DNA from: an uncultured Pelagibacteraceae bacterium
Lineage (GTDB): Bacteria; Pseudomonadota; Alphaproteobacteria; Pelagibacterales; Pelagibacteraceae
NCBI GenBank assembly: GCA_902623495.1
Contig: CACNTW010000003.1
Span: forward strand, 36,240-100,239
Reading direction: 5' to 3'
Length of the DNA stretch: 64,000 bases
Below are positions 29,381-49,620 of the stretch, piece by piece. The position numbers and the translations under genes were made by a program. Under the pieces are notes generated by a model. That model saw only the letters and a list, made by a program, of their open reading frames with translations. It ran no database searches and was not told the origin of the DNA. The number at the start of each line of letters is the position of its first letter. Position 1 is the first letter of the stretch.

Positions 29381-31531
29381 TTATTTGCCTATAGATATTA
29401 AGGTTAAGTCGTCACTTAGCTTGTTATCCCCAGCAGTATTAATTACTGAATTTGATATATCTGATAACTGTTTGCTAGAATCTGTATTAAAATTTTGTTC
29501 TATAATTTTTAATGAACCATCTATTCCTATTTCTTCACCTGAGCTATTTAAGCTTTCGGATAAACCATCAGTAAAAGCATAAAACCTATTATTTCCTAGC
29601 TTAACTTTGTGACTTTTATAAACAGATTTATCTTTTTGAAGTATTACTCCCATGGGTGGCGAATTACTCTCAAATTGCTCATAATTTCCTGATGATGATC
29701 TAATTATAGCTGGCTGATGACCTCCATTAACCCATCTTAATTCATCAGTCCTCATGTTATATTCTCCCAATATACTAGTAACAAACATGCCTCCAGTTTT
29801 AGTTAAAAATAGATCATTATTCATATGAAACATCATTTCATCTGGATCTACTTGATCTCTAGACATAATCTCAAATAAAGTTGATGCTTTTGCCATTACC
29901 ATTCCGGCATGAATTCCTTTACCTGCAACATCTGCAATAATAAAATAAACACTATCATTGTGAGGATAAAAGCTGAAGAAATCTCCAGAAACTTCTCTAG
30001 CTGCAATATTTATTCCATGTACAGGATAATTTTCTAAATTCCTCTTTGGTAGAAAATTTTCTTGAACTTTCACAGCAAGTTTTACTTCATTTGATATTCT
30101 GTCTCTCCATACTTTCTTTTCAGCTTCACTAGTTTCTAGTTTGCTCATCAATCTATTATAATAAAGTCCAATTACACCACCTGCAGTAAATGGATCTTGA
30201 GGTCCTCTAATTGTTAAATCTCCAGACTCAGATTGTTTTTCTAATATTGTAATTAAATCATGTTCTACAGAAGTTGCATTGTGTTCAGCAATATTCAGAC
30301 CTAGCTCTTCATGTAAAGGACTTACTCTTAAAGGATAGAAGTAATTTAAAATTTTCAATAAAATATATGATCCAAAAAAAGAGAATGCGCCAATAGACAC
30401 AATTCCAATAAACTGTGCTTTAATTTGCTCTAATCTAGTTAATCCAGTTCCAAGTATTTCAAGATCACTAAATAATCCAACTGCTATAGTGCCCCAAACA
30501 CCTGCTGCCAAATGAACTGGTACAGCTCCAACAACATCATCTATTTCAAATTTATTTAAAAATTCATTAACAAAAATTGCTACCACTGCACCAATAATAC
30601 CTACGAAAATTGATGTAACAGAAGTCATCGAATTACATCCTGCTGTAATTGCAACCAATCCTGCAAGTGGTCCAAGAATTACATAGTAAGGATCTGGTTT
30701 TTTAAATAATGCAAATGAAATTCCAAGACCTGTTAATAATCCAAAAGAAGCAGCTAGAAATGTATTTATTAAAATTAGTGGAACTGCCTCATCCATAGCT
30801 CCGTTACTTCCGCCATTAAATCCAAACCAACCAAACCACAAAATTAAGGTTCCCAGAACTGCAAGTGGAAAACTTGACCCTGTAAACTTTCCTTTATTAG
30901 CATCTGAATATTTTCCAATTCTTGGACCCAAAATTAATACTGCTGATAATGCAATCCATCCACCTACTGAATGAACAATGGTGCTTCCTGCGAAATCAAC
31001 AAATCCAATATCTGTCAGCCATCCTGTAGTTTTAACTTGTCCTGTAACAGCAAGTAATTGTCTCGTTGCATCAATGTTATTTAAATAACTAGATGACCAA
31101 GCCCAATGACCAACTATTGGATAAATTATTCCTGTAGCAATAATTGTTATGATTAAATAGCCATTAAACTTCATTCTTTCTGCAACAGCGCCCGATACAA
31201 TAGTTGCTGCAGTTGCAACAAACATTGCCTGAAACACAAAGTAAGTCATGTATTCAGCTCGATCAGTTTTAAAGAAAAATAAATCGGTTCCAAAATAACC
31301 ATTAAAGCTCTTACCAAACATCAAACCGAAGCCAAATAACCAAAAGATAACAACTGCTAATCCAAAATCAGCTGCGTTTTTTAATGCTACGTTAATACTA
31401 TTTTTATGCCTTGATAGTCCTGTTTCCATACACATGAAACCTGCCTGCATTATGAAAACTAAAATTGCGCAGTCTATAACCCAAAGGGTATCAACAAATG
31501 ATTTTACTGATTCCAGATCTACATTCTCCAT
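29381..31531 (-). CDS. Ammonium transporter (Amt) fused via a HAMP-like/coiled linker to a SpoIIE/PP2C phosphatase
   Basis: Amt motifs: MQAGF, FQAMF, SGAVAER, DFAGSTIVHSVGG, LWFGWFGFNGGS, DDVVGAVPVH. Linker GDLTIRGPQDPF...YYNRL. SpoIIE motifs: VSGDFF, ADVAGKG, FTDGLSE, DDLTL. Confidence 0.92.
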   Translation of the reverse strand: MENVDLESVKSFVDTLWVIDCAILVFIMQAGFMCMETGLSRHKNSINVALKNAADFGLAVVIFWLFGFGLMFGKSFNGYFGTDLFFFKTDRAEYMTYFVFQAMFVATAATIVSGAVAERMKFNGYLIITIIATGIIYPIVGHWAWSSSYLNNIDATRQLLAVTGQVKTTGWLTDIGFVDFAGSTIVHSVGGWIALSAVLILGPRIGKYSDANKGKFTGSSFPLAVLGTLILWFGWFGFNGGSNGAMDEAVPLILINTFLAASFGLLTGLGISFALFKKPDPYYVILGPLAGLVAITAGCNSMTSVTSIFVGIIGAVVAIFVNEFLNKFEIDDVVGAVPVHLAAGVWGTIAVGLFSDLEILGTGLTRLEQIKAQFIGIVSIGAFSFFGSYILLKILNYFYPLRVSPLHEELGLNIAEHNATSVEHDLITILEKQSESGDLTIRGPQDPFTAGGVIGLYYNRLMSKLETSEAEKKVWRDRISNEVKLAVKVQENFLPKRNLENYPVHGINIAAREVSGDFFSFYPHNDSVYFIIADVAGKGIHAGMVMAKASTLFEIMSRDQVDPDEMMFHMNNDLFLTKTGGMFVTSILGEYNMRTDELRWVNGGHQPAIIRSSSGNYEQFESNSPPMGVILQKDKSVYKSHKVKLGNNRFYAFTDGLSESLNSSGEEIGIDGSLKIIEQNFNTDSSKQLSDISNSVINTAGDNKLSDDLTLISIGK

Positions 31532-31598: not shown

Positions 31599-31844
31599 TT
31601 AATCTTTTTTTTTCCAGATAAAATAAAACAAATAGGGACAAAGTGCTGGAACAACCCCAAACCAAAACCACTCATCCCATCTAAAGCTTTTATCCATCAT
31701 TGGGCTTCTTAAACCATTCCACCAAGTTAAATAACCAATCATTATTATCCACGCTAAACTGGCAGTTGCATAAATTTTAAAGTTTTTTGAAAGGTCTCCT
31801 GAGAAGACCAATTTAACTTGTTCAATATATTTATTGAAGTCCAT
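31599..31844 (-). CDS. Small hypothetical membrane protein (81 aa, two TM, Trp-rich)
   Basis: Two hydrophobic helices; co-oriented between pilE and the Amt fusion. Confidence 0.7.
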   Translation of the reverse strand: MDFNKYIEQVKLVFSGDLSKNFKIYATASLAWIIMIGYLTWWNGLRSPMMDKSFRWDEWFWFGVVPALCPYLFYFIWKKKD

Positions 31845-31853
31845 TTTAATAAT

Positions 31854-32312
31854 TTAACAGTTAGTGTTCTTATCGAGAACTGATTTATGAGTATAAGTCA
31901 TAATGCATGGTTTTGATGTTTCTTGTTCCTCAGTTTTAATTTTGTATCCATCTGAAAAAGCTTCAACACAAAATTCATAGCCTACCTTCTCAACTATAAC
32001 ATCTGCTTCACCTAATAATTCTTTCTCAATTTCATTTGATGGATCTGATTTTCCTGTGATATTACAAGTTTTGGTAAAGAAATAAGTATCGTTATCTGAA
32101 TAATACTCTGACTGAGCTAATGATATTTGCATCATTATATTTTCTGCAGATTTTTTTTTAGATGCTCCAACGTAACCATTGTAACTAACAATTCCTATAG
32201 CTGATATTATTCCTAGTATTGCTACTACCACCAAAAGCTCAATGAGTGAGAACCCAGAGCTTTTAGTAGTCATAAAAGAACTTTTCAAAATAAAAGTTTT
32301 ACTTTTATTCAA
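31854..32312 (-). CDS. pilE: Type IV minor pilin (PilE-like)
   Basis: Class III signal G|FSLIELLVVVAILGII with E5; KSAENIMMQISLAQSEYY helix typical of PilE; C-terminal Cys residues. Confidence 0.8.
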   Translation of the reverse strand: MNKSKTFILKSSFMTTKSSGFSLIELLVVVAILGIISAIGIVSYNGYVGASKKKSAENIMMQISLAQSEYYSDNDTYFFTKTCNITGKSDPSNEIEKELLGEADVIVEKVGYEFCVEAFSDGYKIKTEEQETSKPCIMTYTHKSVLDKNTNC

Positions 32313-32796
32313 TAAGAAGAGTATCGTTTAGTGGATCTTCTCCACTAGCAGTACATGTTGAAACAGTAACCTGACTAGCAGTACTTTTTACATTTGTTCT
32401 GCCTTGCGTATCTGTTGTACAATTAGCTTTTGCATCAAATTTTGCTGCATCAAAAATTGCTGATCCAGAACCACCAGTTGTTCCATATGAGTTTTTAAAT
32501 TCAGATAATGCTAAAGCTGCTGCTTTACTTACTTCTCCAGCAGATGTTCTGCTGCTACAAGTTAATTTATCAGCACCAGCTTTATCTTTCATTGCAGAAC
32601 TCTCTCCAATATTACATTTTTGTAATTCTGCAGCTATGTATTTAACAACTGTTGCATGGTTAGACTTTGCTCCAGACTTTTTCGCACTTGATGTATATCC
32701 AGAATAAGCAACTACTCCAACAGCAGCAAGAATACCGATAATGGCTACAACAACTAATAATTCTATAAGTGTAAAACCTTTATTATTTTTTTTCAT
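32305..32796 (-). CDS. pilA: Type IVa pilin, probable major pilin
   Basis: MKKNNKG|FTLIELLVVVAIIGILAAVGVVAY. RBS AGGA upstream of ATG 32796 (ORF-track start 32862 is too long). First gene behind a dedicated promoter region. Confidence 0.8.
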   Translation of the reverse strand: MKKNNKGFTLIELLVVVAIIGILAAVGVVAYSGYTSSAKKSGAKSNHATVVKYIAAELQKCNIGESSAMKDKAGADKLTCSSRTSAGEVSKAAALALSEFKNSYGTTGGSGSAIFDAAKFDAKANCTTDTQGRTNVKSTASQVTVSTCTASGEDPLNDTLLIE

Positions 32797-32884
32797 AATT
32801 TGTGTTCCTATTTTAAATAAAAAATATGTATATACATAATAATTATATCTCTTGAAAGTCAATATCTATATATGAAATCTATTC

Positions 32885-32919
32885 AAAATGGGTCATTTTT
32901 GTTGATTTCACAGTGAAAT
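32885..32919. promoter_or_regulatory. Two adjacent inverted repeats in the divergent pilA / STAS promoter region
   Basis: AAAATG-GGT-CATTTT (32885-32899) and ATTTCAC-A-GTGAAAT (32905-32919). Confidence 0.35.
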
Positions 32920-32938
32920 TTAATAAATATCAATATTT

Positions 32939-33238
32939 ATGTCATACAAAGTTACAGAAGAAGGCGGAATATCAATTGTTCACCTTGATGGTGAAATTGA
33001 TATGGACGTAACAGAAAAAGCAAAAGAAATTATAATGCCTTTAATAGAGGCAAAAAAAGAAGTTCATCTAAATTTAAAAGAAGTTCAGTATATGGACTCA
33101 TCAGGCATCTCAGTTTTGATTGAAAGTCATCAAAAAGCAACCGAACTTGGAACAAAAGTTATTTTAAAAGATATTAGCAAGTCAGTTTTGAAAGTTATTA
33201 TGATGGCAAAACTAGAACAAATTTTAAACTTAGGATAA
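32939..33238 (+). CDS. STAS-domain anti-sigma factor antagonist (RsbV/SpoIIAA-like)
   Basis: LDGEID and LNLKEVQYMDSSGISVLI with the conserved phospho-acceptor Ser in DSSG. Confidence 0.92.
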   Translation: MSYKVTEEGGISIVHLDGEIDMDVTEKAKEIIMPLIEAKKEVHLNLKEVQYMDSSGISVLIESHQKATELGTKVILKDISKSVLKVIMMAKLEQILNLG

Positions 33239-33241
33239 ATA

Positions 33242-33670
33242 ATGAATAATCTTGCTCAAATATCAGAACAGAGAGATTTTGTCGTAAGTTCATCTAGCCT
33301 TAAAGATGTAAGAAGTTTTTCAAGAGAAGTTTTTGAAAAAGTAAATATTGAACAAGATTTAAAAGACGAATTAGTACTAGCGATAGCAGAAGCAGCCCAG
33401 AATATTGTTAAACATGCTTATCAAGGTGAGGATACTGAGGATAAAATGGAGATAAAAATTTCTTTAGCAAATGGTAATTTAGAAATTGGATTTTTTGATA
33501 AAGGAAGACCAGTTGAAAAAGATAAAATTCGACATAGAAAAATTGATGATATTAAACCAGGCGGACTTGGAACTTTTTTTATTCAACAAATAATGGATGC
33601 AGTAGTATTTAAAGAAGGTGAAAAGCCTTGGATCAACCATTTAATTTTGTCAAAAAAAATAAATTATTGA
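33242..33670 (+). CDS. RsbW/SpoIIAB-like anti-sigma factor Ser/Thr kinase (HATPase_c_2)
   Basis: N-box LAIAEAAQNIVKHAY, G1 DKG, G2 KPGGLGTFFIQQIMD. Confidence 0.9.
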   Translation: MNNLAQISEQRDFVVSSSSLKDVRSFSREVFEKVNIEQDLKDELVLAIAEAAQNIVKHAYQGEDTEDKMEIKISLANGNLEIGFFDKGRPVEKDKIRHRKIDDIKPGGLGTFFIQQIMDAVVFKEGEKPWINHLILSKKINY

Positions 33671-34905
33671 CCTATAATTGCACCAACATTAAAGATCGGT
33701 GAATACATCGCTATCATCAAACCACCAATCATAGTACCCATAAATACTATCATGATGGGTTCAATTAAACTCGACATATTATCTACAGCTGTATCAAACT
33801 CTTCTTCATAGTAAGCCGACACTGATGTAAACATTTCATCCAAGTTACCAGTTTGTTCACCAACTGATATAAGCTGACTAAAAGTCGGAGGGAACACTGG
33901 TTCTTTTAAAAATAATTTTGTTAGAGTATCACCAGAGAAAACACCTTTTTTTACATTTTCCAAAGCTTGAGTAACCACATCATTATTACTTACTTGTTTT
34001 GCAATTTCTATACTCTCAAGCAAGTTTACACCTGCAGAACTAAGATTACCCATAATCAGGGATATTCTTGCAATTAATGATTTTAAAATCATATCTCCAA
34101 ATACAGGCATTTTTAAAACTCTATTGTGCCATTTATATCTTACAGCTGGTATTTTTGTTGTTGTATATTTAAATAAAGCAAAACCAATTATACAAACTAT
34201 AGCTAAAGTCAAACCGCCTGCTCCTCTCATAAAATTACTTGCATTCATAATAACCGCTGTCGGAGTTGGTAAAGCTACTCCCATACCCTCATACATTTCG
34301 GCAAATATTGGAACAACTTTTATTAACATGAAAACCATAACTGTTATAGCAACAACAAACATCACTACGGGATAAGTTAATGCACTTTTGATTTTCTTTT
34401 TTACTTTCTCTCTTTTCTCAAGTGAGTCTACCAATTTAAGTAAAAAAACATCTAACTTACCACTCGCTTCTCCTGCCTTGATTAAGTTTATATAAATATT
34501 ATCAAAAATTTTAGGATACTTTTCAAAACATTTGGATAAAGTTACACCCCCCTCTAAACTTTTTCTTATGTCCTCAATGATTTCTTTCATTGTTGGGTGT
34601 TCAATTTGATCACGTAACATTGATAGAACATTCAAAATTGGCAGGCCTGCTTTAACCATTGTGGCAAACTGTTTTGAGAAAATCATCACATCTTGGGGTG
34701 ATACTTTTTTCTTTCCGAATGAAAAACTGCTTTTTTTACCTTTTTCTTTTGCTGCTTTTTTCTTTTTAGTTTTGACTAAATTTGTGATTATTATCTTTTG
34801 TTCTTTTAACTTATAAGACGCCTCTTCTTGATTAAGAGCTTCTATTTCTCCCTCTATATATTTTCCAGCGGAAATACCTTTGTATGTAAATGTTTCAGAG
34901 GACAT
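33664..34905 (-). CDS. pilC: Type IV pilus inner membrane platform protein
   Basis: Two T2SSF domains; FATMVKAGLPI, AGEASGKLD, ALTYP, VGEQTGNLD, LIEPIMI. Confidence 0.95.
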   Translation of the reverse strand: MSSETFTYKGISAGKYIEGEIEALNQEEASYKLKEQKIIITNLVKTKKKKAAKEKGKKSSFSFGKKKVSPQDVMIFSKQFATMVKAGLPILNVLSMLRDQIEHPTMKEIIEDIRKSLEGGVTLSKCFEKYPKIFDNIYINLIKAGEASGKLDVFLLKLVDSLEKREKVKKKIKSALTYPVVMFVVAITVMVFMLIKVVPIFAEMYEGMGVALPTPTAVIMNASNFMRGAGGLTLAIVCIIGFALFKYTTTKIPAVRYKWHNRVLKMPVFGDMILKSLIARISLIMGNLSSAGVNLLESIEIAKQVSNNDVVTQALENVKKGVFSGDTLTKLFLKEPVFPPTFSQLISVGEQTGNLDEMFTSVSAYYEEEFDTAVDNMSSLIEPIMIVFMGTMIGGLMIAMYSPIFNVGAIIGQ

Positions 34906-34908
34906 TTA

Positions 34909-36657
34909 TTAATCCATTGAAAGAACTCTATCAAACTCCCTGAAATTTAAATCTCCAGTTAATATAAGCTCTCTTCCCATATCTTGCATCGTTCTAAAGC
35001 CTTCATTAGAAGCAATTTCTTTTAGCTCTGGTGTCGTGGCTTTTCTTAAAATTGCTTCTTTAATAGGCTTAGTAACATTTAAAATTTCATAAATACCCAT
35101 TCGACCTTTGTATCCGCTATCTTTACATTTTGCACAACCCTTTCCTTTTTGAACTTTTGCTCTGGAAGCCTGTTCTACTGTAAAACCAAGATCAGCTAAA
35201 GCTTTTGGAGTAATGTCATTATCTGGTTCTCTACACTCTGTACAAGTTTTTCTTGCTAATCTTTGTGCCAAAACCAAACTTACAGCTGCACTAATTAAAT
35301 AATCCGGTGTTCCCATGTTCTGTAATCTTGTGATTGTGCTTGGCGCATCATTTGTGTGAAGTGTACTAAAAACTAAGTGTCCTGTTAGTGCTGCTTTTAA
35401 TCCAATATCAACTGTTTCTTTATCCCTCATCTCTCCAACTAGAATTATCTCGGGGTCCTGTCTTAAAAATGATCTTAAAGCTGTTGCAAAATTAAAACCA
35501 ATATCATCTTTAATTTGAACTTGTCCCACACCATCAAGTTCATACTCAACTGGATCTTCAGCAGTTAATATATTTAAATGGGGTTGAGAAACTTCCTTTA
35601 AAATACTGTATAGTGTTGTTGTCTTTCCTGAACCGGTCGGACCTGTTACAAGTACTAATCCTTGTGTACCATGAATTGCTTTCCTCAAATTTTTTAAATC
35701 TGTTTCTTCAAAATTTAATTGCTCTAAACTTATATCTCCTGCATCTTTATTTAGAACCCTCATTACAATTCTTTCATTTGTAGCTGTTGGCAAAATAGAA
35801 AGACGAAGATCAACAACTTTTCCATCAATTTTAAATGGTATGGCGCCATCTTGTGGAAGTCTTCTCTCTGCAATGTCTAATTTTCCCATAATTTTAAATC
35901 TTGTTACAACTGCACCATAATTAGAGTGCAAAAATTTTTTAAAATGCTCTTGCTCTGTAAGGATACCATCTAATCTATATCTTACTCTTGATGAGAACCT
36001 ATATGGTTCAATATGAATATCAGATACACCAGCTTTAATGGCGTCAGCAACTACAGCTGTACTAAATTTTATAACCTCAGACTCATTTTCAATTGCTTCT
36101 ATATCTTCTTCAGGTTGACTTTCTAAAACTTCTGCTTGTTCATCAACATCATAATCAAACGTTTTAGTTTTTTCAGCTTGGGTTTGTCTAATATCTGAAA
36201 TAGTTTTTTCACCATCTGCTAAAAGTTTATCTACAAAATTTGAGATATCTGAAACTTTTGCGGCATGTAATTCTATATCCATTTTTGTGATGGTTCTTAA
36301 GTTTCTCATCAAACTTAATTTTGAGATATCCGAAATTGCTATATGCAGAACTTTTCCTTCAATTTTAAAAGGTGCTATAAAATTCATATTTATATAATTG
36401 GAGGGAAGCACAGCTTTTAGCTCTTCGGTCGCTTCGATTGTTGATAAATCTACAACATCTAAAGACTGATCATGAACTAATAAATCTAATATTTTTTGTT
36501 CATCTGTTAAATTTAATTCAAACACAGCATCTAGTTGTGATTTATTTCCGTCACTAGAAATTTTTTTTATTTCAGCTAAGTCTTTTCCTGAAATAATATC
36601 TTGATCTATCAAGATATTAATTAAATTAATCTCAGACTCTCTACTTATATTAATCAT
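34909..36657 (-). CDS. pilB: Type IV pilus extension ATPase
   Basis: LDIAERRLPQDG, GPTGSGKTT, AEDPVE, LRQDPEIILVGEMRD, TLHTND, tetra-Cys Zn motif (CTEC...CAKC). Confidence 0.93.
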   Translation of the reverse strand: MINISRESEINLINILIDQDIISGKDLAEIKKISSDGNKSQLDAVFELNLTDEQKILDLLVHDQSLDVVDLSTIEATEELKAVLPSNYINMNFIAPFKIEGKVLHIAISDISKLSLMRNLRTITKMDIELHAAKVSDISNFVDKLLADGEKTISDIRQTQAEKTKTFDYDVDEQAEVLESQPEEDIEAIENESEVIKFSTAVVADAIKAGVSDIHIEPYRFSSRVRYRLDGILTEQEHFKKFLHSNYGAVVTRFKIMGKLDIAERRLPQDGAIPFKIDGKVVDLRLSILPTATNERIVMRVLNKDAGDISLEQLNFEETDLKNLRKAIHGTQGLVLVTGPTGSGKTTTLYSILKEVSQPHLNILTAEDPVEYELDGVGQVQIKDDIGFNFATALRSFLRQDPEIILVGEMRDKETVDIGLKAALTGHLVFSTLHTNDAPSTITRLQNMGTPDYLISAAVSLVLAQRLARKTCTECREPDNDITPKALADLGFTVEQASRAKVQKGKGCAKCKDSGYKGRMGIYEILNVTKPIKEAILRKATTPELKEIASNEGFRTMQDMGRELILTGDLNFREFDRVLSMD

Positions 36658-38222
36658 TATAAAATTCTTGGCGCTATAAATACCAATAATTCATCAAGGT
36701 TATCAGAGTTTGCCTTACCTTTAAAGAGATTACCAATCACAGGTACATTTCCAATACCAGGAGTTTGGTTTTTACTCTGAGAAAGCACGTTTTTCTTAAT
36801 ACCACCAATCACAACAATATCTCCATCTGCAACTAGTAATTTTGTTACAATTTCCATTTTATTGATAGGTGGCTCATCACCTCCGGCTGATCTGTTAGGA
36901 GTATCGTTATTTACTTTAATAGTTAATAGAACGTTTCCATCTCCAATAATGCTTGGAGTGACCTCTAATTTCAATGCAGCTTCTTTAAAAGAAGTAGAGG
37001 TTGTACCATCAGACGTAGTTTGATAAGGAATTTCCTCACCTTGCGTTACAGTTGCTAGCTGGTTATCCAAAGTAAATACTTTTGGATTTGATATTGTTTT
37101 ACCCATTCCCATACTCTCTAATGCTGTTATTTCAGCTTTAAGAACTCCTGTGGGTGTTCGTCTCAAAATTCCGATACCACTTGTAGCGCCAGTAACTGGA
37201 AAATTAGCTATGCTATCTGTTGCTGATCCAAGCCCTGCGGCAGTATCTAAATCAGTTCCAAATGCACTTCCACTACTAGTTCCTGCTGTACCCCCTGATA
37301 TTTTTCCACCTCTATTATAATAGCCGCCTATCCTAGTACCGAGCGCTCTTTCAAAATCTGAGTTAGCTTCGACAATGAATGCTTCAATTAAAACTTGTTT
37401 GGTTCTTATATCTATCTCTTTCACAACTTTATCAACCACATCTAAGTCTTTTTCTTTACCTCTTACTATTATTGACCTTGTAGTTATTTCTTCTGTTATT
37501 TGAATTGGTGTAAAGGAACTATCTCCACCTGCTGATTGTGTAAATAATTCCTCAATTGTCTGTTTAGCTTGAGACGGTGTTATATAATAAAGTCTAAATA
37601 TTTCAGAATATATTGGTTCAACGCTATCTTCCAATTCTACTTTTCTCTTAACTGCCTGAGCTCTTTCAGATTTATAAGTTTCTTGAGCAGTTAAAGTTTC
37701 TGGTGAGTGTATTCTTATTAAATTACTTGCTACATCAACATCTGAAGCAAAATTTTTCATATCTAGTAATGCCTGAAAAGCTTTATCCCAAGGAACATCT
37801 ATTAATTCTGCTGATATTGCACCAGCTACCTCGTCACCAACAAGAATATTTATTTCTCCAATTTTACCCATTAATTCCATTGTTTCTTTGTAATCTAAGT
37901 TTTTAAATTTTAACGTAACTCTTTGTTTCAATAATGGATAATCATCTGGAATGATTAAATAATTTCTTTGCGATTCAGATGATATTTTTTTTCTTTTGCC
38001 TAATTTTCTAGAGTCACCTTCAATAGGTTTTGGTCCCATCTCTAAAGTTTTTGCAACTTCTGACTTTCCAGATGCAACTATGTTTTTATCCTTTATTAAC
38101 GGGGTATTATGCTTAAAGGGTTTGTTGTATTTTTTTCCAAATTGTGAATTTGGACCACAGGCGCTAATAATAAGTACAATAGTAAATAGTAAAACTATGT
38201 TAAAAAACTTTTTAATAATCAT
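36657..38222 (-). CDS. pilQ: Type IV pilus secretin (short, probably lipoprotein)
   Basis: VPWDKAF (N0), QVLIEAFIVEA, ISNPKVFTLDNQLATVTQGEEIPY, LKLEVTP, PGIGNVPVIGNLFK, LVFIAPRIL. Likely start MIIKK at 38222 with lipobox ISA-C. Confidence 0.93.
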   Translation of the reverse strand: MIIKKFFNIVLLFTIVLIISACGPNSQFGKKYNKPFKHNTPLIKDKNIVASGKSEVAKTLEMGPKPIEGDSRKLGKRKKISSESQRNYLIIPDDYPLLKQRVTLKFKNLDYKETMELMGKIGEINILVGDEVAGAISAELIDVPWDKAFQALLDMKNFASDVDVASNLIRIHSPETLTAQETYKSERAQAVKRKVELEDSVEPIYSEIFRLYYITPSQAKQTIEELFTQSAGGDSSFTPIQITEEITTRSIIVRGKEKDLDVVDKVVKEIDIRTKQVLIEAFIVEANSDFERALGTRIGGYYNRGGKISGGTAGTSSGSAFGTDLDTAAGLGSATDSIANFPVTGATSGIGILRRTPTGVLKAEITALESMGMGKTISNPKVFTLDNQLATVTQGEEIPYQTTSDGTTSTSFKEAALKLEVTPSIIGDGNVLLTIKVNNDTPNRSAGGDEPPINKMEIVTKLLVADGDIVVIGGIKKNVLSQSKNQTPGIGNVPVIGNLFKGKANSDNLDELLVFIAPRIL

Positions 38223-38661
38223 CTGCCTCTCTGACTTGATTATTAAAATCAATAATCATAAATTTTCCATCTTCTTTTTTAAAAATTGCTTCAGTCAATC
38301 TTAGATCCACAAGTTGAATTTTTCCTAAAAATTGACCAAGAGTTAAAGTCAAAACTTCACCTCCAGAATTTACTATTGAAATATAACTGTGATCCTTTCC
38401 AGATATAAGACCAGCTAATTTAAAATTATATAAACTAAGTTCGTTCTCTTGTTCATCAGCAGGTATATTTCCGGACATTGAACTTGTACCTTCATTTCCT
38501 GCAAAAGGATCATTTAAAGGAACTTCCTCTTCATTTTCTAATTCTTTAGCTATTTCATTAACTTTATCTAAAACTTCTTGCTTTTGATCGTGACTGTCAG
38601 CTAGTGCTAACGAATTAATTAATGTAAATAATAAAATAAATATTATTTTAAAAAAATTCAT
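38212..38661 (-). CDS. pilP: PilP-like pilus assembly protein
   Basis: Position between pilO and pilQ; NDPF and LxxYxFKLAGLI...GQFLG pattern of the PilP domain; no lipobox Cys. Confidence 0.65.
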   Translation of the reverse strand: MNFFKIIFILLFTLINSLALADSHDQKQEVLDKVNEIAKELENEEEVPLNDPFAGNEGTSSMSGNIPADEQENELSLYNFKLAGLISGKDHSYISIVNSGGEVLTLTLGQFLGKIQLVDLRLTEAIFKKEDGKFMIIDFNNQVREADDY

Positions 38662-39286
38662 TTGGCATTCCTACAATTGTTAATTCACCTTTGGCTACTA
38701 TCGCTCCAGTTGAATCATTTTGTACTACACTTATCGTCTCTTTGTCAAAATTTAACATTTTTTTTTGTTTAGATACTGCTCTTTTAAACTTAATATATCC
38801 AAGGAAATTACCCTTTATTTCGTAATCTACTGGAATTTTATAATAAGAAACCATTTCCATTGTTATATTGTTTTCAGACTGTTGTGCATTTCCAGCTTTT
38901 AAAACTGGTTTAGGTTTTTTTTTCTGTATTTTTGAGATAATTAATCCATTAACAGCTGCGTGCTTGCTCAAACTTTCATACAAACCTTCAACTTCAGCTT
39001 TTGAGTGAAACAAAGTTGAGCTAGCTTCAAATTCAGGTTTTCTTTTTTTTATATTTTTTTTTAAAGTAATTATGTCATTTTCAAACTTATTGATTTCATT
39101 TTCTTTTAAAATTTTATCATCAAATATAGCTCTTCTTTCTTTAACCATTGGACTAAGAATGACATAATAAATAATCAAAAATAAAATTACAGCCCCTACT
39201 CCTATTCCAAATTTAATTAATGTTTTTTTGTCGATGCCTGATAGCTTTTGCTTCAAGTCATCCATTGTCATATTTTTTAAATCCAT
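38648..39286 (-). CDS. pilO: Type IVa pilus alignment protein PilO
   Basis: One TM helix, coiled coil, then YYKIPVDYEIKGNFLGYIKF PilO core. Start at 39286 overlaps the pilM stop (TAATG). Confidence 0.85.
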   Translation of the reverse strand: MDLKNMTMDDLKQKLSGIDKKTLIKFGIGVGAVILFLIIYYVILSPMVKERRAIFDDKILKENEINKFENDIITLKKNIKKRKPEFEASSTLFHSKAEVEGLYESLSKHAAVNGLIISKIQKKKPKPVLKAGNAQQSENNITMEMVSYYKIPVDYEIKGNFLGYIKFKRAVSKQKKMLNFDKETISVVQNDSTGAIVAKGELTIVGMPNEFF

Positions 39287-41001
39287 TATGCACTCTCCAA
39301 AATACAAGCTATTTTAAAGCCCTTCATTGTTTGAGAGCTCTGTTGATCATTAGGCAAGGTCATGCTTGCTAAAGATGCTTGTGAAATTAATTTTTTGTTA
39401 TTTAAATTGCTTATTAACTTTAAAATGTCTTGGTCACTAAAAGCTGTACCTTCTATAACTATTAAGTCTGAACCATTGTAATCAATTGAGCTAAATTTAA
39501 CTCTTTTTGGCACTGCTGAAGCAATTTGAGCTAAAACTCTAAAGCTAATAGTCTTGTTGGATTTTATTGACTGGCTAAGCTCAAGTGCTTTATCCATTAA
39601 ATTTTTTTCTTTGAGATATTTATTTCTCTCTAAAGTCTTTAGCTCATGAGTTTGAATAACTTCCTCATATCCAGCTATCTTTTTATTTAAATCTGTAATT
39701 TGCCAAAATGAAAATCCAAAAAGAACAACATATATTGCAACAACTATTCCAGCAATTCCTTTAAATGCAAAATTTGAAAAAGCTTTAGCTTTTTTTTGTG
39801 CAATCATATTTTCTCTGTTTGGAAGAAGGTTGATATTTTTTACTGCAGTTACAAATTTATAATAACCAAATACATCTAACTTTCTAAAAGCTAATCCCAT
39901 AACTGTTGAAAAATAAGATGGATTACTTAATTTAGTATCATTTTCAATTTGTGCAGGTATCTTAATTCCATCAAATGGATTAAAAAGATTATAGCCAGTA
40001 TTAACCATATTTTTCCTAAAGCTTGCTAAATAATCTTCTACGTTTGGCAGATTAGATGTTACTTTTAAATTCCTAATTCTTTTTTCATATTTTGTTTCAA
40101 AATCCTGAACTGCCTGTTTAACCTGGGTCATATATCTTCTGACCAAAGCATCCATTTCTTCTTGATTATTACTTTCAGATAAAGTTTTTCTATCTTGAGC
40201 TCTAATAAATATATCAGTTATGATTGGATTATTTTCATAAAGTATCATTACATAATTTTCATCAAGTCCAAATTCTAAAACTGCTGTTAAATTTGAATCT
40301 TCAATTGATCCAGCTATTTGATTAATTTGGTCTACTGCAGATTTTAATGCAAAACATTTGACATCAATAATTACAGCGTTTAATCCACCTTTTTTAATAA
40401 TTGCTGTATAACTATTAATGTCTGAAAGTTTTGAGGCAACAAACAAGATATCCATCGTGTTAGCTTTTTCATCTTTATTTATTACCTGATGAAATATTGA
40501 ATACTCTGCTAAGTTATCTGTTAGTTGAACTAAATTTTCCCAAAGTGAATCTGTATCAATAGCTTTTTTCAATTCTTCTTCAGTCATTAAAGGCGCAGTT
40601 ACGACCCTAATGATGGCGCTTGTAACTGGAATTGCTATTGCAGCATTGGTTGTTGATACTTTTGATTTTAATAAAGCTAACTTTAGCTCTTCAGCAATTT
40701 TGTCTTGATTTTCTAAAACTGTTCCACCATCAGGAACTCCTTCAAATTTATGAACATAAAATTTATCTAAGACCCATTGGTTTGCTTTATTGCTGGAAAC
40801 TTGTGCAAGTCTAATTTCGTTTGGTGTCAATTCAACACCTAAAATTTCCTCACCTTTTATTGAGGATTTCCCTAATCTATTTTTTAATAGTTTGCCAAAA
40901 AAACTCTCTTTCTTTTTGCCTGCATCTGGCTTTGGCACAGGTTTATCTGGCGCACCATCTTTACTCTTCTTTTTAAAAAGATTTGCAAAAGGATTTTTCA
41001 T
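39286..41001 (-). CDS. pilM: Fused PilM-PilN protein
   Basis: N-terminal actin-like PilM (ILGVELTPNEIRL, AIAIP, AVLEFG, VMGLAFR), then the PilN signature INLLP (39820-39834), a TM helix, coiled coil and PilN core (VPKRVKFSSI...IEGTA). Confidence 0.88.
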   Translation of the reverse strand: MKNPFANLFKKKSKDGAPDKPVPKPDAGKKKESFFGKLLKNRLGKSSIKGEEILGVELTPNEIRLAQVSSNKANQWVLDKFYVHKFEGVPDGGTVLENQDKIAEELKLALLKSKVSTTNAAIAIPVTSAIIRVVTAPLMTEEELKKAIDTDSLWENLVQLTDNLAEYSIFHQVINKDEKANTMDILFVASKLSDINSYTAIIKKGGLNAVIIDVKCFALKSAVDQINQIAGSIEDSNLTAVLEFGLDENYVMILYENNPIITDIFIRAQDRKTLSESNNQEEMDALVRRYMTQVKQAVQDFETKYEKRIRNLKVTSNLPNVEDYLASFRKNMVNTGYNLFNPFDGIKIPAQIENDTKLSNPSYFSTVMGLAFRKLDVFGYYKFVTAVKNINLLPNRENMIAQKKAKAFSNFAFKGIAGIVVAIYVVLFGFSFWQITDLNKKIAGYEEVIQTHELKTLERNKYLKEKNLMDKALELSQSIKSNKTISFRVLAQIASAVPKRVKFSSIDYNGSDLIVIEGTAFSDQDILKLISNLNNKKLISQASLASMTLPNDQQSSQTMKGFKIACILESA

Positions 41002-41127: not shown

Positions 41128-42144
41128 ATGTTTGAAAAATTAGAAGAACTTGCAAAAAATAATAAGAAAATTTCTGATTTTCACATAAGAGCTGGCGCTC
41201 CACTTGCTTACCGACAAACTGGTGAGATTATTAAGGTTCAAGAAGTAATGGTTACGGCTCAAGATATAAAAGATTTATTATCAATGAACTGTAATGAACA
41301 TGAATTGAATAAATTTGATAAAACTCACGAATTAGATACTTCGGTAACATTAAGTGGATTAAGATTTAGAGCAAACTTTTATAAAACAATTAAAGGCCCG
41401 GCATGCGTTTGTAGAAGAGTGGAAAGTAAAATTCCTGAAATGGATCAATTTAATTTACCTCAGTCTCTTTATGATATTGTCGACTTTCACAAAGGACTAG
41501 TTTTAGTTACAGGCCCAACTGGTTCAGGTAAATCAACTACGCTTGCAGCTATTGTTAATGAAATAAATAAAACAAGAACTGCAAATATTATTACTGTAGA
41601 AGACCCCGTTGAATTTATTCATCAGGATAACAAAAGTATTGTTTCTCATAGAGAAGTTGGAAAACAAACTGAAACATTTGCTGCAGCTTTAAAAGCAGCT
41701 CTTAGAGAAGATCCAGACGTAATTTTAGTTGGAGAAATGAGAGACTTAGAAACTATCAGTCTTGCATTGACTGCTGCTGAAACTGGACATCTAGTTTTTG
41801 GAACTTTACATACTAGTGGTGCTCCAAGTACAATTAATAGAATTATCGATGTTTTTCCTCCTGAGCAACAAGAACAAATTAGAGCTCAAATTTCGACGTC
41901 TCTTAAAATGGTAGTTACTCAAAGGTTATTAAAAACAAGAGATGGTGCTGGTAGAGTTGGTGCTTTTGAAATTATGAAATGTACTGCGCCAATACAAAAC
42001 TTAATTAGAGAAGCTAAAATTCATCAAATTCCTAGTATCATGCAAACTGCAGTAAGAGATGGAATGATAACTATGGAAAAATCTTTAGAGGAATTAGCTA
42101 AAGCAGGGAAAATAGATCCAGGTGCTGCAAGATCAGAACATTAA
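41128..42144 (+). CDS. pilT: Type IV pilus retraction ATPase
   Basis: SDFHI, GPTGSGKSTT, ITVEDPVE, ALREDPDVILVGEMRD, TLHTSGA, PIQNLIRE (AIRNLIRE motif). Confidence 0.95.
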   Translation: MFEKLEELAKNNKKISDFHIRAGAPLAYRQTGEIIKVQEVMVTAQDIKDLLSMNCNEHELNKFDKTHELDTSVTLSGLRFRANFYKTIKGPACVCRRVESKIPEMDQFNLPQSLYDIVDFHKGLVLVTGPTGSGKSTTLAAIVNEINKTRTANIITVEDPVEFIHQDNKSIVSHREVGKQTETFAAALKAALREDPDVILVGEMRDLETISLALTAAETGHLVFGTLHTSGAPSTINRIIDVFPPEQQEQIRAQISTSLKMVVTQRLLKTRDGAGRVGAFEIMKCTAPIQNLIREAKIHQIPSIMQTAVRDGMITMEKSLEELAKAGKIDPGAARSEH

Positions 42145-42736
42145 AGGTTTTACATTACTCGAGTTGCTTGTTGTTATTTCAATAGTAGCTTTGGTTTCGG
42201 CCATAGGTATGCCTAACTTTATGAGTTGGCAAAAAGATAGGGAAGTTAGAACAGCTGCTGAAAAAATTGCAAATGCAATTAATATGGCCAATACGCGTAC
42301 AACAAATGGAAGTCTAGAAATTGTCAAAATTACTTTTGAAAGTACTACATCATCTACTAGTGTTACTACTGTTGGAATTGACAGAAAAAAATTTTCTGAC
42401 AGGATTAATAAAGGTTTAGACGTAAAATGTAAAAATGATGCGAATTGGTTCACTAAAACTATTGATCAGCAAACTTTTTCGGTTGCAACAAACTTGACGA
42501 AAAAATCGTCAATTTGTTTTTCTTTGAGAGAAAAAAATTATGGAACTGATGGTATCTTTAATGGACAGCAAAATATCAACTTAGAAAATTCTTCAAATGT
42601 TACAGATAAATTTATTATGATTTGTCGAAGTGGCTCAAGTTGTCCTGGAAAACATTCATACTTGATTGAATGGACAAGATTTGGAAATGTTAACAAATTT
42701 AAATGGAGTAAAAGTGGTGCTTGGACAAGAATGTAA
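42122..42736 (+). CDS. fimT: Minor pilin, FimT/FimU-like
   Basis: KG|FTLLELLVVISIVALVSAIGMPNF class III signal; first gene of the minor-pilin cluster. Confidence 0.7.
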   Translation: MLQDQNIKGFTLLELLVVISIVALVSAIGMPNFMSWQKDREVRTAAEKIANAINMANTRTTNGSLEIVKITFESTTSSTSVTTVGIDRKKFSDRINKGLDVKCKNDANWFTKTIDQQTFSVATNLTKKSSICFSLREKNYGTDGIFNGQQNINLENSSNVTDKFIMICRSGSSCPGKHSYLIEWTRFGNVNKFKWSKSGAWTRM

Positions 42737-43334
42737 AAAAAATAGATTTGATAAGGGGATAACGATATTAGAGGCTTTAGTATCAACTGCTATAATTGCA
42801 ATTGGATTTATTGCTATTTTTCAGATGGTTCAATATTCAATTCGTTCAATTGATGTATCGGGTGAAAGAACCAAATCCAGCCTTCTAATTTCAATGGTTG
42901 CTGAAGATTTAATATCAGAGAAGAATGCATCATCGCCAACAAGCAAGGTTTCCTTAACTGATTACCTAATTAATCAAGAAAAAAGTGGAAAAACTTCCTG
43001 GAATGCTCCGAGTTGCAATTCTGGATCTTCAACATCTCAAACCTTCACTAATACTGTTGATGCTAAAAAATATAAGTGGGCAAATAGATTTTCTAAAAGA
43101 AGATTAAAATGCAAGGGAGTAGAAAATAAAAAAGAACTTAAAGTATATGACATTTGCAATAATGCCGCTTCTGGTAATGTTTGTACTTACAATAATAATA
43201 AAAATTATAATGGAACAAGGCTTTATGACCAAATGGTAATTGGTCGTATGGAAGTAAATATCAGTACAGGAAGAGTTGATAATCAGGGAAATAAAAAACC
43301 TAAGAAAGGGTATTTATATTTTCAAATTAGATAA
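42714..43334 (+). CDS. pilV: Minor pilin PilV-like
   Basis: KG|ITILEALVSTAI. Start uncertain; GTG at 42714 or 42717 follows GGAG at 42705. Confidence 0.7.
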   Translation: MVLGQECKKNRFDKGITILEALVSTAIIAIGFIAIFQMVQYSIRSIDVSGERTKSSLLISMVAEDLISEKNASSPTSKVSLTDYLINQEKSGKTSWNAPSCNSGSSTSQTFTNTVDAKKYKWANRFSKRRLKCKGVENKKELKVYDICNNAASGNVCTYNNNKNYNGTRLYDQMVIGRMEVNISTGRVDNQGNKKPKKGYLYFQIR

Positions 43335-44170
43335 TGAAAAAACTAAAAAACATATCTGGATTAACTTTAATTGAAATTTTATTAGGTATTGTAATTTCTG
43401 TCATAATGATGGGTGCAATGTTAACATCGTATAATGTTGTAAATAATTCATATTCACAAGTTACCGATAAAGCAAAGATATCTAATCAAGGTAAAGTAGT
43501 TTTGGGGATGATAATGGCTGACATTAGAAACGCTGGTTTTAAATATTATGGTGATACGGTAAAAACTACAAATGAACATGTTCCAATTCTGATTACTAAA
43601 GCGTCAAATTTTAACACTGCATGTGATACAATAGATATTGTTTATGGTGACATGCAATATGATGAAAGCAAAACACCAAAATATACTTTTCAAAGATATA
43701 AAGTTACTTATAGCTGTGAACGTTCAAAACTTCCTGATAAAAGCGCACCTCCATTACCAGGAAATAAATTTCCACCTATCAATGCGTTTGCTGTTTATAA
43801 AACAAAAGTCATTTGGGATGAAACTGGAAGTAATTGGAAAAATCCTAGGACAGATGGAAATGATGCAACTTATGAAAAACAATTAGTTGCAGATTATATT
43901 GAAGATTTAGTTTTTTTACCAATAGATGATGAAGGTAAATTAATAAATCCTCCACCAACGGTAAATAATGCAACAAAAGATAAATTATATAAAATTAAAA
44001 CTGTCGATATAGCGCTTTCTATAAGATCAACAAAAAAATTCTATAGATCTGATAAAGATAGAACTAAGTTTACATTAAATAATCCTCTTAGAAAAAAAAC
44101 TAGGAATGATAAATATTTTAGAGAGACAATAGTTGTAACTGCACATGCAAGAAATATGGGAACGTTATAA
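43334..44170 (+). CDS. pilW: Minor pilin PilW-like
   Basis: SG|LTLIEILLGIVIS and MADIRNAGF (PilW DxRxAG motif). Confidence 0.8.
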   Translation: MKKLKNISGLTLIEILLGIVISVIMMGAMLTSYNVVNNSYSQVTDKAKISNQGKVVLGMIMADIRNAGFKYYGDTVKTTNEHVPILITKASNFNTACDTIDIVYGDMQYDESKTPKYTFQRYKVTYSCERSKLPDKSAPPLPGNKFPPINAFAVYKTKVIWDETGSNWKNPRTDGNDATYEKQLVADYIEDLVFLPIDDEGKLINPPPTVNNATKDKLYKIKTVDIALSIRSTKKFYRSDKDRTKFTLNNPLRKKTRNDKYFRETIVVTAHARNMGTL

Positions 44171-44853
44171 TGATAAATAATAATGAAAAAGGTTTTGCGC
44201 TAGTTCTTTCGTTAGTTTTGATGTTAGTAATGTCATTGATGGGCGGTGCTCTAATTGTGATTTCTGCTGGAGACCATCAAAGCAACAATCGGAGTGATGA
44301 ATATCAACAAACCTTTTATGTTGCAGAAACAGCTCTTCTTGAAGGAGAAAGATATGTGCTCAATCAATCTCTAGGACCTTGGAATATTAGTAATCACCAA
44401 AGGGATATGAGTAAAAGAAATCTTCCTAACAATACAGTAAGTTTTCCGTCTAATATGACCCAAAAAAACTATAATTCCAAATCTATGAGCTCAGATAATT
44501 ACCTATCACAATCAGATACTTGTTATAATTCTTTTCAAGTAAACAAACCAAAAGACTACAAAGTCGTTGTTGCTGAAAGTTGGAACTTTGGAGTAATTCT
44601 GGATGACAGTATAGGTTCAAAAACCATTCCCAAGAGTGAGATCGATAAATTGAAGAAATTTTACTATCAATATTTTATCGAGCAAGTAGGCTCTGCTCCA
44701 TTTAAAGGCACAGGAACAAGTGTGAAAAAAGAAGCTGGAAATACTGGAAGTGATGGTATTGCTTACAGAGTTTATGGATGTGGCATCAAAAAAGAGAAGG
44801 ATGATATAAATTTAGTAGTAGCACTAGAAAGTGTAATTGTTTTACCGAAGTAA
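44170..44853 (+). CDS. pilX: Minor pilin PilX-like
   Basis: KG|FALVLSLVLMLVMSL lacking E5 (PilX/GspK hallmark); QTFYVAETAL motif. Confidence 0.85.
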   Translation: MINNNEKGFALVLSLVLMLVMSLMGGALIVISAGDHQSNNRSDEYQQTFYVAETALLEGERYVLNQSLGPWNISNHQRDMSKRNLPNNTVSFPSNMTQKNYNSKSMSSDNYLSQSDTCYNSFQVNKPKDYKVVVAESWNFGVILDDSIGSKTIPKSEIDKLKKFYYQYFIEQVGSAPFKGTGTSVKKEAGNTGSDGIAYRVYGCGIKKEKDDINLVVALESVIVLPK

Positions 44854-44911
44854 ATATGGCAAATTTGTTTATTAATAAAAAATATTTTAATGTAGTAAGT
44901 AAAATTATTTT

Positions 44912-45445
44912 ATGAAAATATTAATAAAATCTTTTATCATTGTAATTTTATCCATTGTCAGCTCATATTCTGCATGTGATTTAAAAGCTGAATTTGGAGA
45001 AAAAAAAGAAGTTTTTGAAAAACGTGAAATGATAGGAAGAACATTTCCATTAGAATATCCAGAATTAGAAGTTTTTCCTGTATTGGCAGATGACATTTGT
45101 CCAAATCAAAAATTAAAAGATGTCGGTATCGAGTATAGATTTTTAAATAATGAGTTGGTTGCAATTAATTTTGTTGCTCTCAACGATGATAGAAATTTAG
45201 TTTCAGAGAAACTATTATTAATGAATTATGTAAAAAATAATTATAAAAAATTCGACACTGGAAAAAATCCAAAATCATATGAAGGTGTTGAAGTAATTGA
45301 GAAAACAAATTTATTTGTGGTTTACCAAAGAATAACAGGTGATGATGGAATTAAAGATGAACAAATTTATTTATCAACTCCTGAATTAGATGAAAAGTTA
45401 TCGAAGTTTTATGCAGAAAAAGAAATGGAGACGACAAAAAACTAA
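44912..45445 (+). CDS. Exported hypothetical protein between pilX and pilY1
   Basis: N-terminal signal-like segment, two Cys; stop overlaps the pilY1 start. Confidence 0.7.
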   Translation: MKILIKSFIIVILSIVSSYSACDLKAEFGEKKEVFEKREMIGRTFPLEYPELEVFPVLADDICPNQKLKDVGIEYRFLNNELVAINFVALNDDRNLVSEKLLLMNYVKNNYKKFDTGKNPKSYEGVEVIEKTNLFVVYQRITGDDGIKDEQIYLSTPELDEKLSKFYAEKEMETTKN

Positions 45446-48400: not shown

Positions 48401-49620
48401 ATGCTGCAGATCCAGATGTTCCTGATGAAACTTCAAGTTTAGGTGTATTTATTAAAGCTGGTGCTAAAGCAACAGGAGTTCAAACTCATCCTGAATATGA
48501 TTATAGTCAATTAGGTGAGACTTGGTCTGATCCAAGAATATTTAGAATACCAAATACTGGTGCTGGTGATACGAATATACTCGATGATATTTATGTTGCG
48601 GTAATGGGAGGAGGATTTGGAACTCAATTTGAAGGTGTCGGTTCAAACTTAACATTAATAAATTTGGAGGATTTTTCAAATCCAGGAAGTTTATATAAGA
48701 GAATACCAATTGAAGACACGGCTGCTAGTGACATAGTTAATTCAGTTCCATCTTCAGTAGTATTAGTAACACCTGATACATCAGTTGGATTAAATTATTC
48801 AGGTGGCTTAGTTTATGTCAGCGACTTAGAGGGTAAAATTACAAAAGTAAATTTAACAAACATGAGCGATGACAATAGTGGAAATACTATTAAAATTTTT
48901 GATACAACTACTTTATTTAATGCAGGTTCATCAAAAGCAAACGGAAGATATATGTATCACGCAATGGATGCTACTATTGGTCAAACGACAAATTCTATGT
49001 GGTTATTCGCAGGTACTGGTGATTATGAGAGAATAAATGATACTACCTCTGGTGTTCAAAACCTGATGATTGGAATTAAAGACGTTGATTATCCTTACTA
49101 TAAAGAAATTGCAACTCCAGCTAAAGCTGACACCATAACTGAATGTAAAAATACAACTGATGACACAACAGGTGCTAAGTGTCCTGAGAATGCTGACAAA
49201 GGTTGGTATATAAATTTAAAAGATTTTGCAAAAGTTACTGCTGAACCAACTGTGTTCCAAGGCCAAGTTTACTTCCCAGTATATGAACCTACTAAATCAG
49301 TAAATAAGTGTAGTTTAGGTGATGCATACATTTGTGGGGTTGATGACGAGTGTGGAACAAACAATTCATCACAACTAAATCAAGAAATGGGCAAAAGTAA
49401 TAAATGTGCATGGGTTGGACAAGGTGTGCTGTCAAAAATTGTAACTTTTGGAGATACATTATTTGCAAATATTGCGGGTAAAGTTGACTGTACCAAAATT
49501 AAAGATGCTAAGAAAAGAAAAGAATGTGAAGATGGCTCGAAAAAAGATTTGATTAATATAAAAGCTGGTTCAGGACAAGTCTCTGGATATAGAAGTTCTT
49601 GGAGACAAAATAACTATTAA
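45445..49620 (+). CDS. pilY1: PilY1 pilus tip adhesin with vWA domain and C-terminal beta-propeller
   Basis: MIDAS [17 protein letters not shown]; PilY1 core [53 protein letters not shown]; follows pilVWX. Confidence 0.9.
   Translation: [1391 protein letters not shown]

Follow-up and report, generated by a model that had tools for sequence, protein, structure and literature searches.

A STAS/RsbW gene pair and two sensor phosphatases in the type IV pilus island of an uncultured SAR11 bacterium

Bacteria of the SAR11 group are the ocean's most abundant heterotrophs and possess very few regulators. Here we describe a two-gene unit of an uncultured member of this group (Pelagibacteraceae) which specifies a STAS-domain protein and an RsbW-type serine kinase and is located between genes pilA and pilC of a type IV pilus island. 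It lies in a stretch of 64,000 nucleotides (nt) of contig CACNTW010000003.1 (positions 36,240 to 100,239), hereafter the window, to which coordinates refer unless another locus is named. The pair probably forms the core of a partner-switching module which is dedicated to the pilus island and has no dedicated sigma factor. Related systems have been described in Nostoc, Bacillus and Chlamydia.

In Nostoc punctiforme, as represented in two later papers, HmpU/V/W serves pilus-driven motility as a switch independent of sigma factors, and its proposed output is the STAS protein (Riley et al. 2018, via PMC6495340 and PMC8256260). HmpU/HmpV/HmpW resembles the SAR11 genes in that it combines a phosphatase of the PP2C type with a STAS protein and a kinase of the RsbW type. 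It apparently does not work through a sigma factor and is functionally tied to type IV-pilus-driven behaviour, as would be the SAR11 switch; this likeness is one of composition, not of compared sequences. Unlike the Hmp system the SAR11 module lies within the pilus gene cluster itself, would have as inputs phosphatases fused to Amt, GAF, CHASE2 or receiver domains, and resides in a 1.3-Mb genome with two sigma factors.

With the Bacillus systems RsbU/RsbP-RsbV-RsbW-sigmaB and SpoIIE-SpoIIAA-SpoIIAB-sigmaF it shares the three protein families, the position of the phosphorylated serine in the STAS protein, the N, G1 and G2 boxes of the kinase, and the tight spacing of the STAS and kinase genes. 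Unlike them it is accompanied by no sigB/sigF-type gene, and its kinase falls below the RsbW and SpoIIAB equivalog cut-offs. The RsbU-RsbV1/V2-RsbW system of Chlamydia trachomatis is similar in that its genome is reduced and encodes very few sigma factors, SigB not among them, and in that its input is a membrane sensor phosphatase; furthermore, some SAR11 strains (HTCC1062/G120) also have two STAS paralogues. The Chlamydia system, unlike that of SAR11, reportedly affects growth and the primary sigma factor, belongs to the core and is not pilus-linked.

Several of the SAR11 components have been reported separately. The 716-residue Amt-phosphatase was proposed as an ammonium sensor ("Amt-GI5", SAR11_0049-0050) for which no cognate transducer was found (PMC11796062). 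In strain HTCC1062 the Amt fusions SAR11_0049 and SAR11_0050 adjoin pilins in hypervariable region 1, and in region HVR4 a "phosphatase, sigB regulator" gene with a globin gene at its side stands between pilins (PMC2217521). The phosphoproteome of this strain, published in 2025, contains RsbW (SAR11_0057) as the sole annotated Ser/Thr kinase, detected as protein, and according to the same paper no protein phosphatase is known in HTCC1062 (PMC13198564). In a figure of a 2026 preprint an antagonist and RsbW are labelled inside the pilus locus. How SAR11 senses nitrogen in the absence of PII and NtrBC has been called an open question (PMC3870248). While PMC11796062, PMC13198564 and the preprint deal with orthologous genes none of them, unlike the present analysis, connects the parts, and our literature search found no paper joining Amt-phosphatase, kinase, STAS protein and pilus locus.

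The gene pair and its putative input phosphatases

The four genes of the putative module are the following (aa, amino acids):

32939..33238, plus strand: STAS-domain-only protein of the anti-sigma-factor-antagonist type, 99 aa (PF01740, TIGR00377)
33242..33670, plus strand: RsbW/SpoIIAB-type serine kinase (HATPase_c_2), 142 aa (PF13581)
29381..31531, minus strand: Amt domain fused to a SpoIIE-type PP2C, 716 aa, left end gene of the island (PF00909, E 6.6e-111; PF07228, E 9.7e-34)
56263..57552, plus strand: GAF-domain SpoIIE-type PP2C, 429 aa, divergent from pilD, right end gene of the island (PF07228, E 6e-42; GAF_2, E 1.4e-10)

Only 3 nt separate the stop codon of the STAS gene from the ATG of the kinase gene, and both neighbours, pilA and pilC, are on the minus strand. 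A first-pass annotation, made from the letters alone, had proposed such a two-gene unit on the strand opposite to its neighbours, and its open reading frame (ORF) coordinates proved exact. It had also pointed to a short divergent region shared with pilA, and this is a spacer of 142 base pairs (bp) at 32797..32938. The pilin ORF as called reaches a TTG at 32862, and its leader MKKNNKGFTLIELL sets the real start at the ATG at 32796.

The STAS protein was identified through PF01740 [2.9e-17] and the TIGR00377 "anti-sigma factor antagonist" model [72.6 bits, cut-off 53.45], and the kinase through PF13581 [8.4e-20]; judged by these profile scores both domain assignments are far above chance. The top NCBIfam matches of the kinase are RsbW models, all of them under the equivalog cut-offs (bits/cut-off: RsbW NF003144, 52.8/145; RsbW TIGR01924, 45.3/155; SpoIIAB TIGR01925, 27.9/135). 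By this measure it belongs to the same superfamily as RsbW and SpoIIAB and is not an equivalog of either. The description of the kinase as "minimal" does not hold, 142 aa being a normal size for the family (141 aa in the solved RsbW chain 6m36_A, 137–161 positions in SpoIIAB/RsbW profiles).

Alignment of the STAS protein to RsbV (6m36_B) and SpoIIAA (1th8_B) places its DSSG on their DS(T/S)G phosphorylation site, so that the predicted phospho-acceptor is Ser54, in YMDSSG. Alignment of the kinase to RsbW (6m36_A) covers the N box (EAAQNIVKHAY), the G1 box (DKGRP) and the G2 box (GGLGTFF). For comparison we used the best 80 orthologous loci from single-cell genomes and the best 120 homologous proteins, all of which are from close SAR11 relatives. 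The motifs YMDSSG, EAAQNIVKH, DKG(R/K)(P/A)V and GGLGT(F/Y)F are kept in every copy among 75–80 orthologous loci, YMDSSG in 75 of 75 STAS orthologues. Kinase residues E50, N54, D86, G88, G107 and G110 are invariant across SAR11 lineages at just 30–67% identity. Median pairwise ratios of nonsynonymous to synonymous substitution (dN/dS) are 0.03 for STAS and 0.08 for RsbW, with 0.03 for pilB, pilC and pilT. The substitution pattern thus indicates that both genes are under strong purifying selection, and sequence conservation strongly supports the view that RsbW is an intact GHKL serine kinase. In a metagenome protein of 243 aa (P0006, from a 29.9-kb contig) a frameshift close to the C-terminus of STAS has produced a STAS-RsbW fusion, which is probably due to an error in sequencing or assembly, or else a rare variant.

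The first-pass annotation had suggested phosphoproteomics of the DSSG peptide, and published HTCC1062 tables already hold pSer54 for both STAS orthologues of that strain. The supplementary peptide table lists GVIFPVIDSGKNVALNLSNVQYMDSSGISVLIESHQK phosphorylated at S54 of AAZ20881 and EVHLNLKDVPYMDSSGISIIIESNQR phosphorylated at S54 and S55 of AAZ20880 (PMC13198564). These sites go unmentioned in the text of that paper although they are present in its tables; RsbW, both STAS proteins, PilA, PilC and PilB were quantified across its growth conditions. The STAS, RsbW, PilA and PilB peptides map exactly and uniquely to ORFs of the related locus G120. The window STAS protein is 71% and 60% identical to the two HTCC1062 STAS proteins, and RsbW is 69% identical to its HTCC1062 counterpart. 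The tables strongly support phosphorylation of STAS Ser54 in vivo in the HTCC1062 orthologues.

Only two SpoIIE-family matches were found in the whole genome, the Amt-PP2C and the GAF-PP2C. The genome likewise has one STAS-only protein and one HATPase_c_2 kinase above cut-off, both in the window as are both phosphatases. The four metal-binding motifs SGDF, ADVxGKG, TDG and DD(L/I)T can be read in both PP2C translations. The Amt-PP2C gene is situated 1.4 kb to the left of the STAS/RsbW pair and is kept at this position, in one or two copies, in every orthologous locus which extends there. Orthologues of the GAF-PP2C adjoin pilD in the relatives G126 and G120. Together the two PP2C genes are the end genes of a 28-kb pilus island which encloses the STAS/kinase pair, and they are likely to specify the input phosphatases of the switch. 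Because the genome's sole two SpoIIE-type phosphatases sit at the ends of the island, the unit has all the parts of a partner-switching module except the output, and is more than a bare pair. The pair recognized in the first-pass annotation is therefore real, while the input side of the system was overlooked there.

The borders of the island were located by comparison. In the window it is bounded by a DAO-family oxidoreductase gene (28067-29308) and by rodA (57553-58683), whereas in G126 (locus L028) the DAO gene adjoins rodA, just past the GAF-PP2C gene. The two phosphatase genes thus mark the borders of the island.

Distribution among relatives and organization of the pilus islands

We searched 151 genomes of the family three times, for RsbW, for pilC and for SpoIIE-type PP2C. 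RsbW is present in 24 of them and pilC in 32. All 24 RsbW carriers are pilC-positive, while RsbW is missing from each of the 119 pilC-negative genomes (Fisher p 2e-21). In no carrier are RsbW and pilC more than 10 kb apart. The 24 carriers also possess a SpoIIE-type PP2C without exception; the only two other SpoIIE matches are fragments in lower-quality assemblies. Among high-quality genomes 22 of 58 have RsbW, and about 60% do not.

Three gene orders were recognized. In the first, shared by the window and all 80 single-cell loci, one or two Amt-PP2C genes are followed by the gene for an 81-aa protein, a pilin gene and pilA, then by STAS-RsbW on the other strand, and then by pilC, pilB and the further genes. 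A second lineage has RsbW-STAS next to pilD and, in the vicinity, a phosphatase fused to CHASE2 or Amt. A third lineage has a split arrangement, with STAS in front of pilD, RsbW alone beside pilT, and a phosphatase with a receiver domain; in G012 STAS is 7 bp upstream of pilD and the kinase gene is next to pilT, some 30 kb away. The STAS proteins of this third lineage (G012, L122 11633-12166; G058, L124) are 170–177 aa long and consist of a STAS domain and an acidic tail of some 75 residues which is rich in proline and ends in DDDGDDKIKFKR. The sensor domains fused to the SpoIIE-type phosphatases vary among SAR11 pilus islands between Amt, GAF, CHASE2 and receiver: CHASE2-PP2C occurs in G058, G050 and G126, and a HisKA-like domain joined to a receiver and PP2C in G012. 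HTCC1062/G120 has two STAS paralogues.

A fourth pilus lineage, to which the complete genome G041 as well as G119 and others belong, has a full set of pilus genes, with pilA abutting pilC, while STAS-only proteins, RsbW and PP2C are missing from the entire genome. Since RsbW is confined to pilC-positive genomes and there is a pilus lineage without kinase, STAS protein and PP2C, the switch is an optional regulatory add-on which comes and goes as a set, and does so only in the company of pilus genes.

The remaining genes of the island in the window are as follows:

31599-31844, minus strand: 81-aa membrane protein, co-oriented with pilA (synteny in 80 loci)
31854-32312, minus strand: second pilin, co-oriented with pilA (N_methyl, E 1.5e-07; synteny in 80 loci)
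32305..32796, minus strand: major pilin (pilA-like), divergent from STAS (N_methyl, E 1.7e-10; leader as given above)
33664..41001, minus strand: pilC, pilB (with MshEN), pilQ, pilP-like gene, pilO and a pilM-pilN fusion (T2SSF, T2SSE+MshEN, Secretin, PilO, PilM_2+PilN)
41128..49620, plus strand: pilT, four minor pilin/PilX-like genes, a 177-aa ORF and a PilY1-like protein of 1391 aa (T2SSE, N_methyl, PilX_N, VWA_2, synteny)
55330..56094, minus strand: prepilin peptidase pilD (assigned from sequence features and synteny)

Every pilus locus in the comparison has an orthologue of pilD. A single 571-aa ORF (39286-41001) specifies PilM joined to PilN, and the fusion is kept in relatives in ORFs of 571–847 aa. 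Between the PilY1-like gene and pilD (51641-55315) are genes for a MoxR-type AAA ATPase (292 aa), a 304-aa ORF which gave no Pfam match, and a TgpA-like transglutaminase (633 aa). This MoxR/304-aa-type/TgpA trio is directly upstream of RsbW-STAS in G050 and is absent from the G126 island. Outside the island (20464-22163) there is a gene for an inverse-autotransporter beta-domain protein of 278 aa and, after it, an ORF of 287 aa without Pfam match.

PilB (34909-36657) has an MshEN domain, of the type which binds cyclic di-GMP (c-di-GMP), despite the fact that a regular-expression and Pfam search found no GGDEF protein in the genome. The domain may be vestigial or bind something else. C-di-GMP as an intermediary was rejected, there being no GGDEF protein.

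Sigma factors and the output of the switch

Two sigma-70-family genes, for RpoD (623 aa) and RpoH (299 aa), are present in the whole genome (1.26 Mb, 93% complete). No sigma-54 was found in it, and control of pilA by sigma-54/PilR was rejected on that account. There is no cognate SigB/SigF-type sigma gene in the operon or elsewhere in the genome. Fourteen of 15 complete or near-complete carriers of the switch have just RpoD and RpoH; the exception, G080, has one extra 187-aa sigma factor of the extracytoplasmic function (ECF) type, located about 680 kb from its RsbW. All five complete relatives without the switch that were checked have the same two sigma factors. Because carriers and non-carriers share RpoD and RpoH, the presence of the switch is unmatched by an extra sigma factor. 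The listing which the first-pass annotation had asked for thus confirms that the pair is "sigma-less," that is, without a dedicated sigma factor. The module is not to be classed as a SigB/SigF regulator. Given that no dedicated sigma factor occurs in this genome or in 14 of 15 carriers, a non-canonical target, as had been proposed, is likely; the strict linkage of the switch to pilus genes is circumstantial evidence for a target other than a sigma factor.

We consider it probable that the pair is the core of a partner-switching module dedicated to the type IV pilus island because of the combined weight of the domains and motifs, the purifying selection, the genome inventory, the strict co-occurrence with pili, the pSer54 of the orthologues, and the precedent in Nostoc. 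In such a module RsbW would phosphorylate the STAS protein on Ser54. The Amt-fused phosphatase, reading external ammonium, would remove this phosphate, as would the GAF phosphatase, reading a cytoplasmic small molecule. The balance between free STAS and the STAS-RsbW complex would set pilus output, with the unphosphorylated STAS protein affecting the assembly or retraction of pili or the expression of their genes. By analogy with HmpU/V/W, SypE/A, BtrU/V/W and HsbR/A, known switches which work independently of sigma factors and mostly have the STAS protein as output, unphosphorylated STAS is the likeliest output. The switch would probably tune the pilus to the nutrient state.

Several points weigh against this proposal. 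Each STAS phosphopeptide is represented by a single spectrum, and from another organism whose orthologues are 60–71% identical. We infer RsbW as the writer of the observed pSer54, and an output partner on the pilus side is suggested by analogy with the systems just named. The abundance of the HTCC1062 Amt fusions is unchanged under nitrogen limitation, a result which is silent on activity (PMC3870248). The genome being 93% complete, a third sigma factor might sit in the remaining 7%. Genomic linkage may merely reflect inheritance of the island as a unit. Since one SAR11 lineage clearly builds pili without the switch, the latter is at most a modulator. Finally, a search for a docking site on pilus proteins, in the form of positions which are invariant where the switch is present and have lost constraint in the switch-less lineage, gave no signal, with 2–6 columns per protein, fewer than in a control lineage. 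Three PilB changes of the switch-less lineage cluster in an N-terminal LPxx(Y/F) motif, the sample being small.

One specific version of a dedicated switch would act directly on the pilus motor. Occupancy of Amt by ammonium would set the activity of the fused phosphatase and with it the Ser54 state of STAS, whereupon STAS or freed RsbW would act directly on PilB, PilT, PilC or PilM, so that pilus extension is gated post-translationally by nitrogen status. We regard this as a tentative idea which is unlikely to be correct in full, and rate it considerably below the dedicated switch as a whole. If it is true the switch would be the missing transducer of the SAR11 ammonium "transceptor," and DNA uptake or attachment would be gated in an organism without PII, NtrBC, sigma-54 or c-di-GMP synthesis.

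The main alternative is a canonical anti-sigma mechanism, in which RsbW sequesters RpoH (a group-3 sigma factor like SigB and SigF) or RpoD until unphosphorylated STAS frees it; promoters of the pilus island could then depend on the freed sigma factor. RpoD and RpoH are the only sigma factors available for such a role, and there is a precedent in Chlamydia RsbW and sigma-66 (PMC8256260). The kinase residue R24 is invariant in all lineages. It presumably lines up with SpoIIAB Arg20, a contact for both sigma-F and SpoIIAA.

A conserved element of the island also bears on this alternative. The pilA/STAS spacer has a single GC-rich conserved block, TCAAAATGGGTCAT at 32883-32896, which reads ACCCATTTTGA in the sense of pilA (68 unique orthologous spacers). 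It recurs as ACCTATTTTGA at 31585-31598, 54–67 nt upstream of the Amt-PP2C start, and in some relatives also upstream of pilMN. The consensus in the sense of the downstream gene is ACC(C/T)ATTTTGA, with a TTG 15–16 nt upstream. In 1.39 Mb of orthologous loci (L042–L121) there are 106 matches, which all share one orientation. Of these 104 are intergenic, and nearly all stand in one of four places: upstream of the Amt-PP2C gene, of pilA or of pilMN, or just past the 3' end of Amt-PP2C. In G120 (L029) the element was found near 1994, 3878, 3899 and 19867. G141 and the pilD-linked loci do not have it, and the split loci gave just one weak match, upstream of the receiver-domain PP2C gene in G012. 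This distribution points to shared transcriptional control of the island operons, the element being a candidate promoter or operator.

Together with the upstream TTG the element loosely resembles sigma-32 promoters (CTTGAAA ... CCCCATNT), which would suit an RpoH-dependent island. A strict sigma-32 pattern gave 20 matches, mostly intragenic. Simple motifs yielded no set of heat-shock gene promoters in the genome with which to compare it, so that no sigma-32 regulon could be defined. A promoter scan gave sites no more numerous than in shuffled sequence. Sequestration of a sigma factor is also hard to reconcile with a switch which is optional, being found in the minority of high-quality genomes counted above, and which always travels with pilus genes, whereas RpoD and RpoH are universal and, in the searches made, indistinguishable between carriers and non-carriers. 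Moreover, the promoter-like element is limited to part of one lineage. On balance we consider an anti-sigma role of RsbW improbable.

It is rather doubtful that RsbW is a general Ser/Thr kinase of SAR11, with the STAS protein one among many substrates and the linkage to pili incidental. Such a role might be suspected from the fact that RsbW is the only annotated kinase of its kind in HTCC1062, yet 1014 Ser/Thr/Tyr sites were found on 555 proteins, about 40% of all proteins of the strain (PMC13198564). Sites on RsbW itself and on pilus proteins are among those listed there: RsbW pS2 (81 spectra) and pS76, PilA pT97/pT99, PilB pT543 (QATTPELR), PilO-like pY92 and PilMN pS272, none of which is discussed in that paper. 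The PilB motif is conserved as ATTPEL in the window. Because about 40% of all proteins carry a site an enrichment on pilus proteins is doubtful, such sites being expected by chance. Furthermore, most high-quality genomes of the family do without RsbW, which leaves the phosphorylation of core proteins unexplained by it, and the characterized relatives RsbW and SpoIIAB act on STAS partners.

Control of pilC by antisense or transcriptional interference is very improbable: the 3' ends of the kinase gene and pilC (33664..34905, minus strand) do overlap by 7 bp, as the first-pass annotation had it, and by 4 bp in G126 and G120, but 83 of the 160 convergent gene pairs of this genome overlap and 126 lie within 10 bp of each other (median gap -4 bp), and other gene orders place the switch away from pilC altogether. 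A special antisense role for this overlap, ordinary in its genome, was thus rejected.

Significance for SAR11

The dedicated partner switch unites, as one testable module, a sensor without a partner, a kinase without a phosphatase, and genes known to lie in a pilus locus. It consists of a pair of phosphatases with sensor domains, a STAS protein whose orthologues have been found phosphorylated on Ser54, and a kinase, and it is confined to an optional pilus island. The natural pilus lineage without the switch provides a comparator for it. If the output is the pilus machinery, the module would constitute a nutrient-to-pilus pathway of a kind undescribed in proteobacteria, and would provide a function for partner switches in genomes without SigB.

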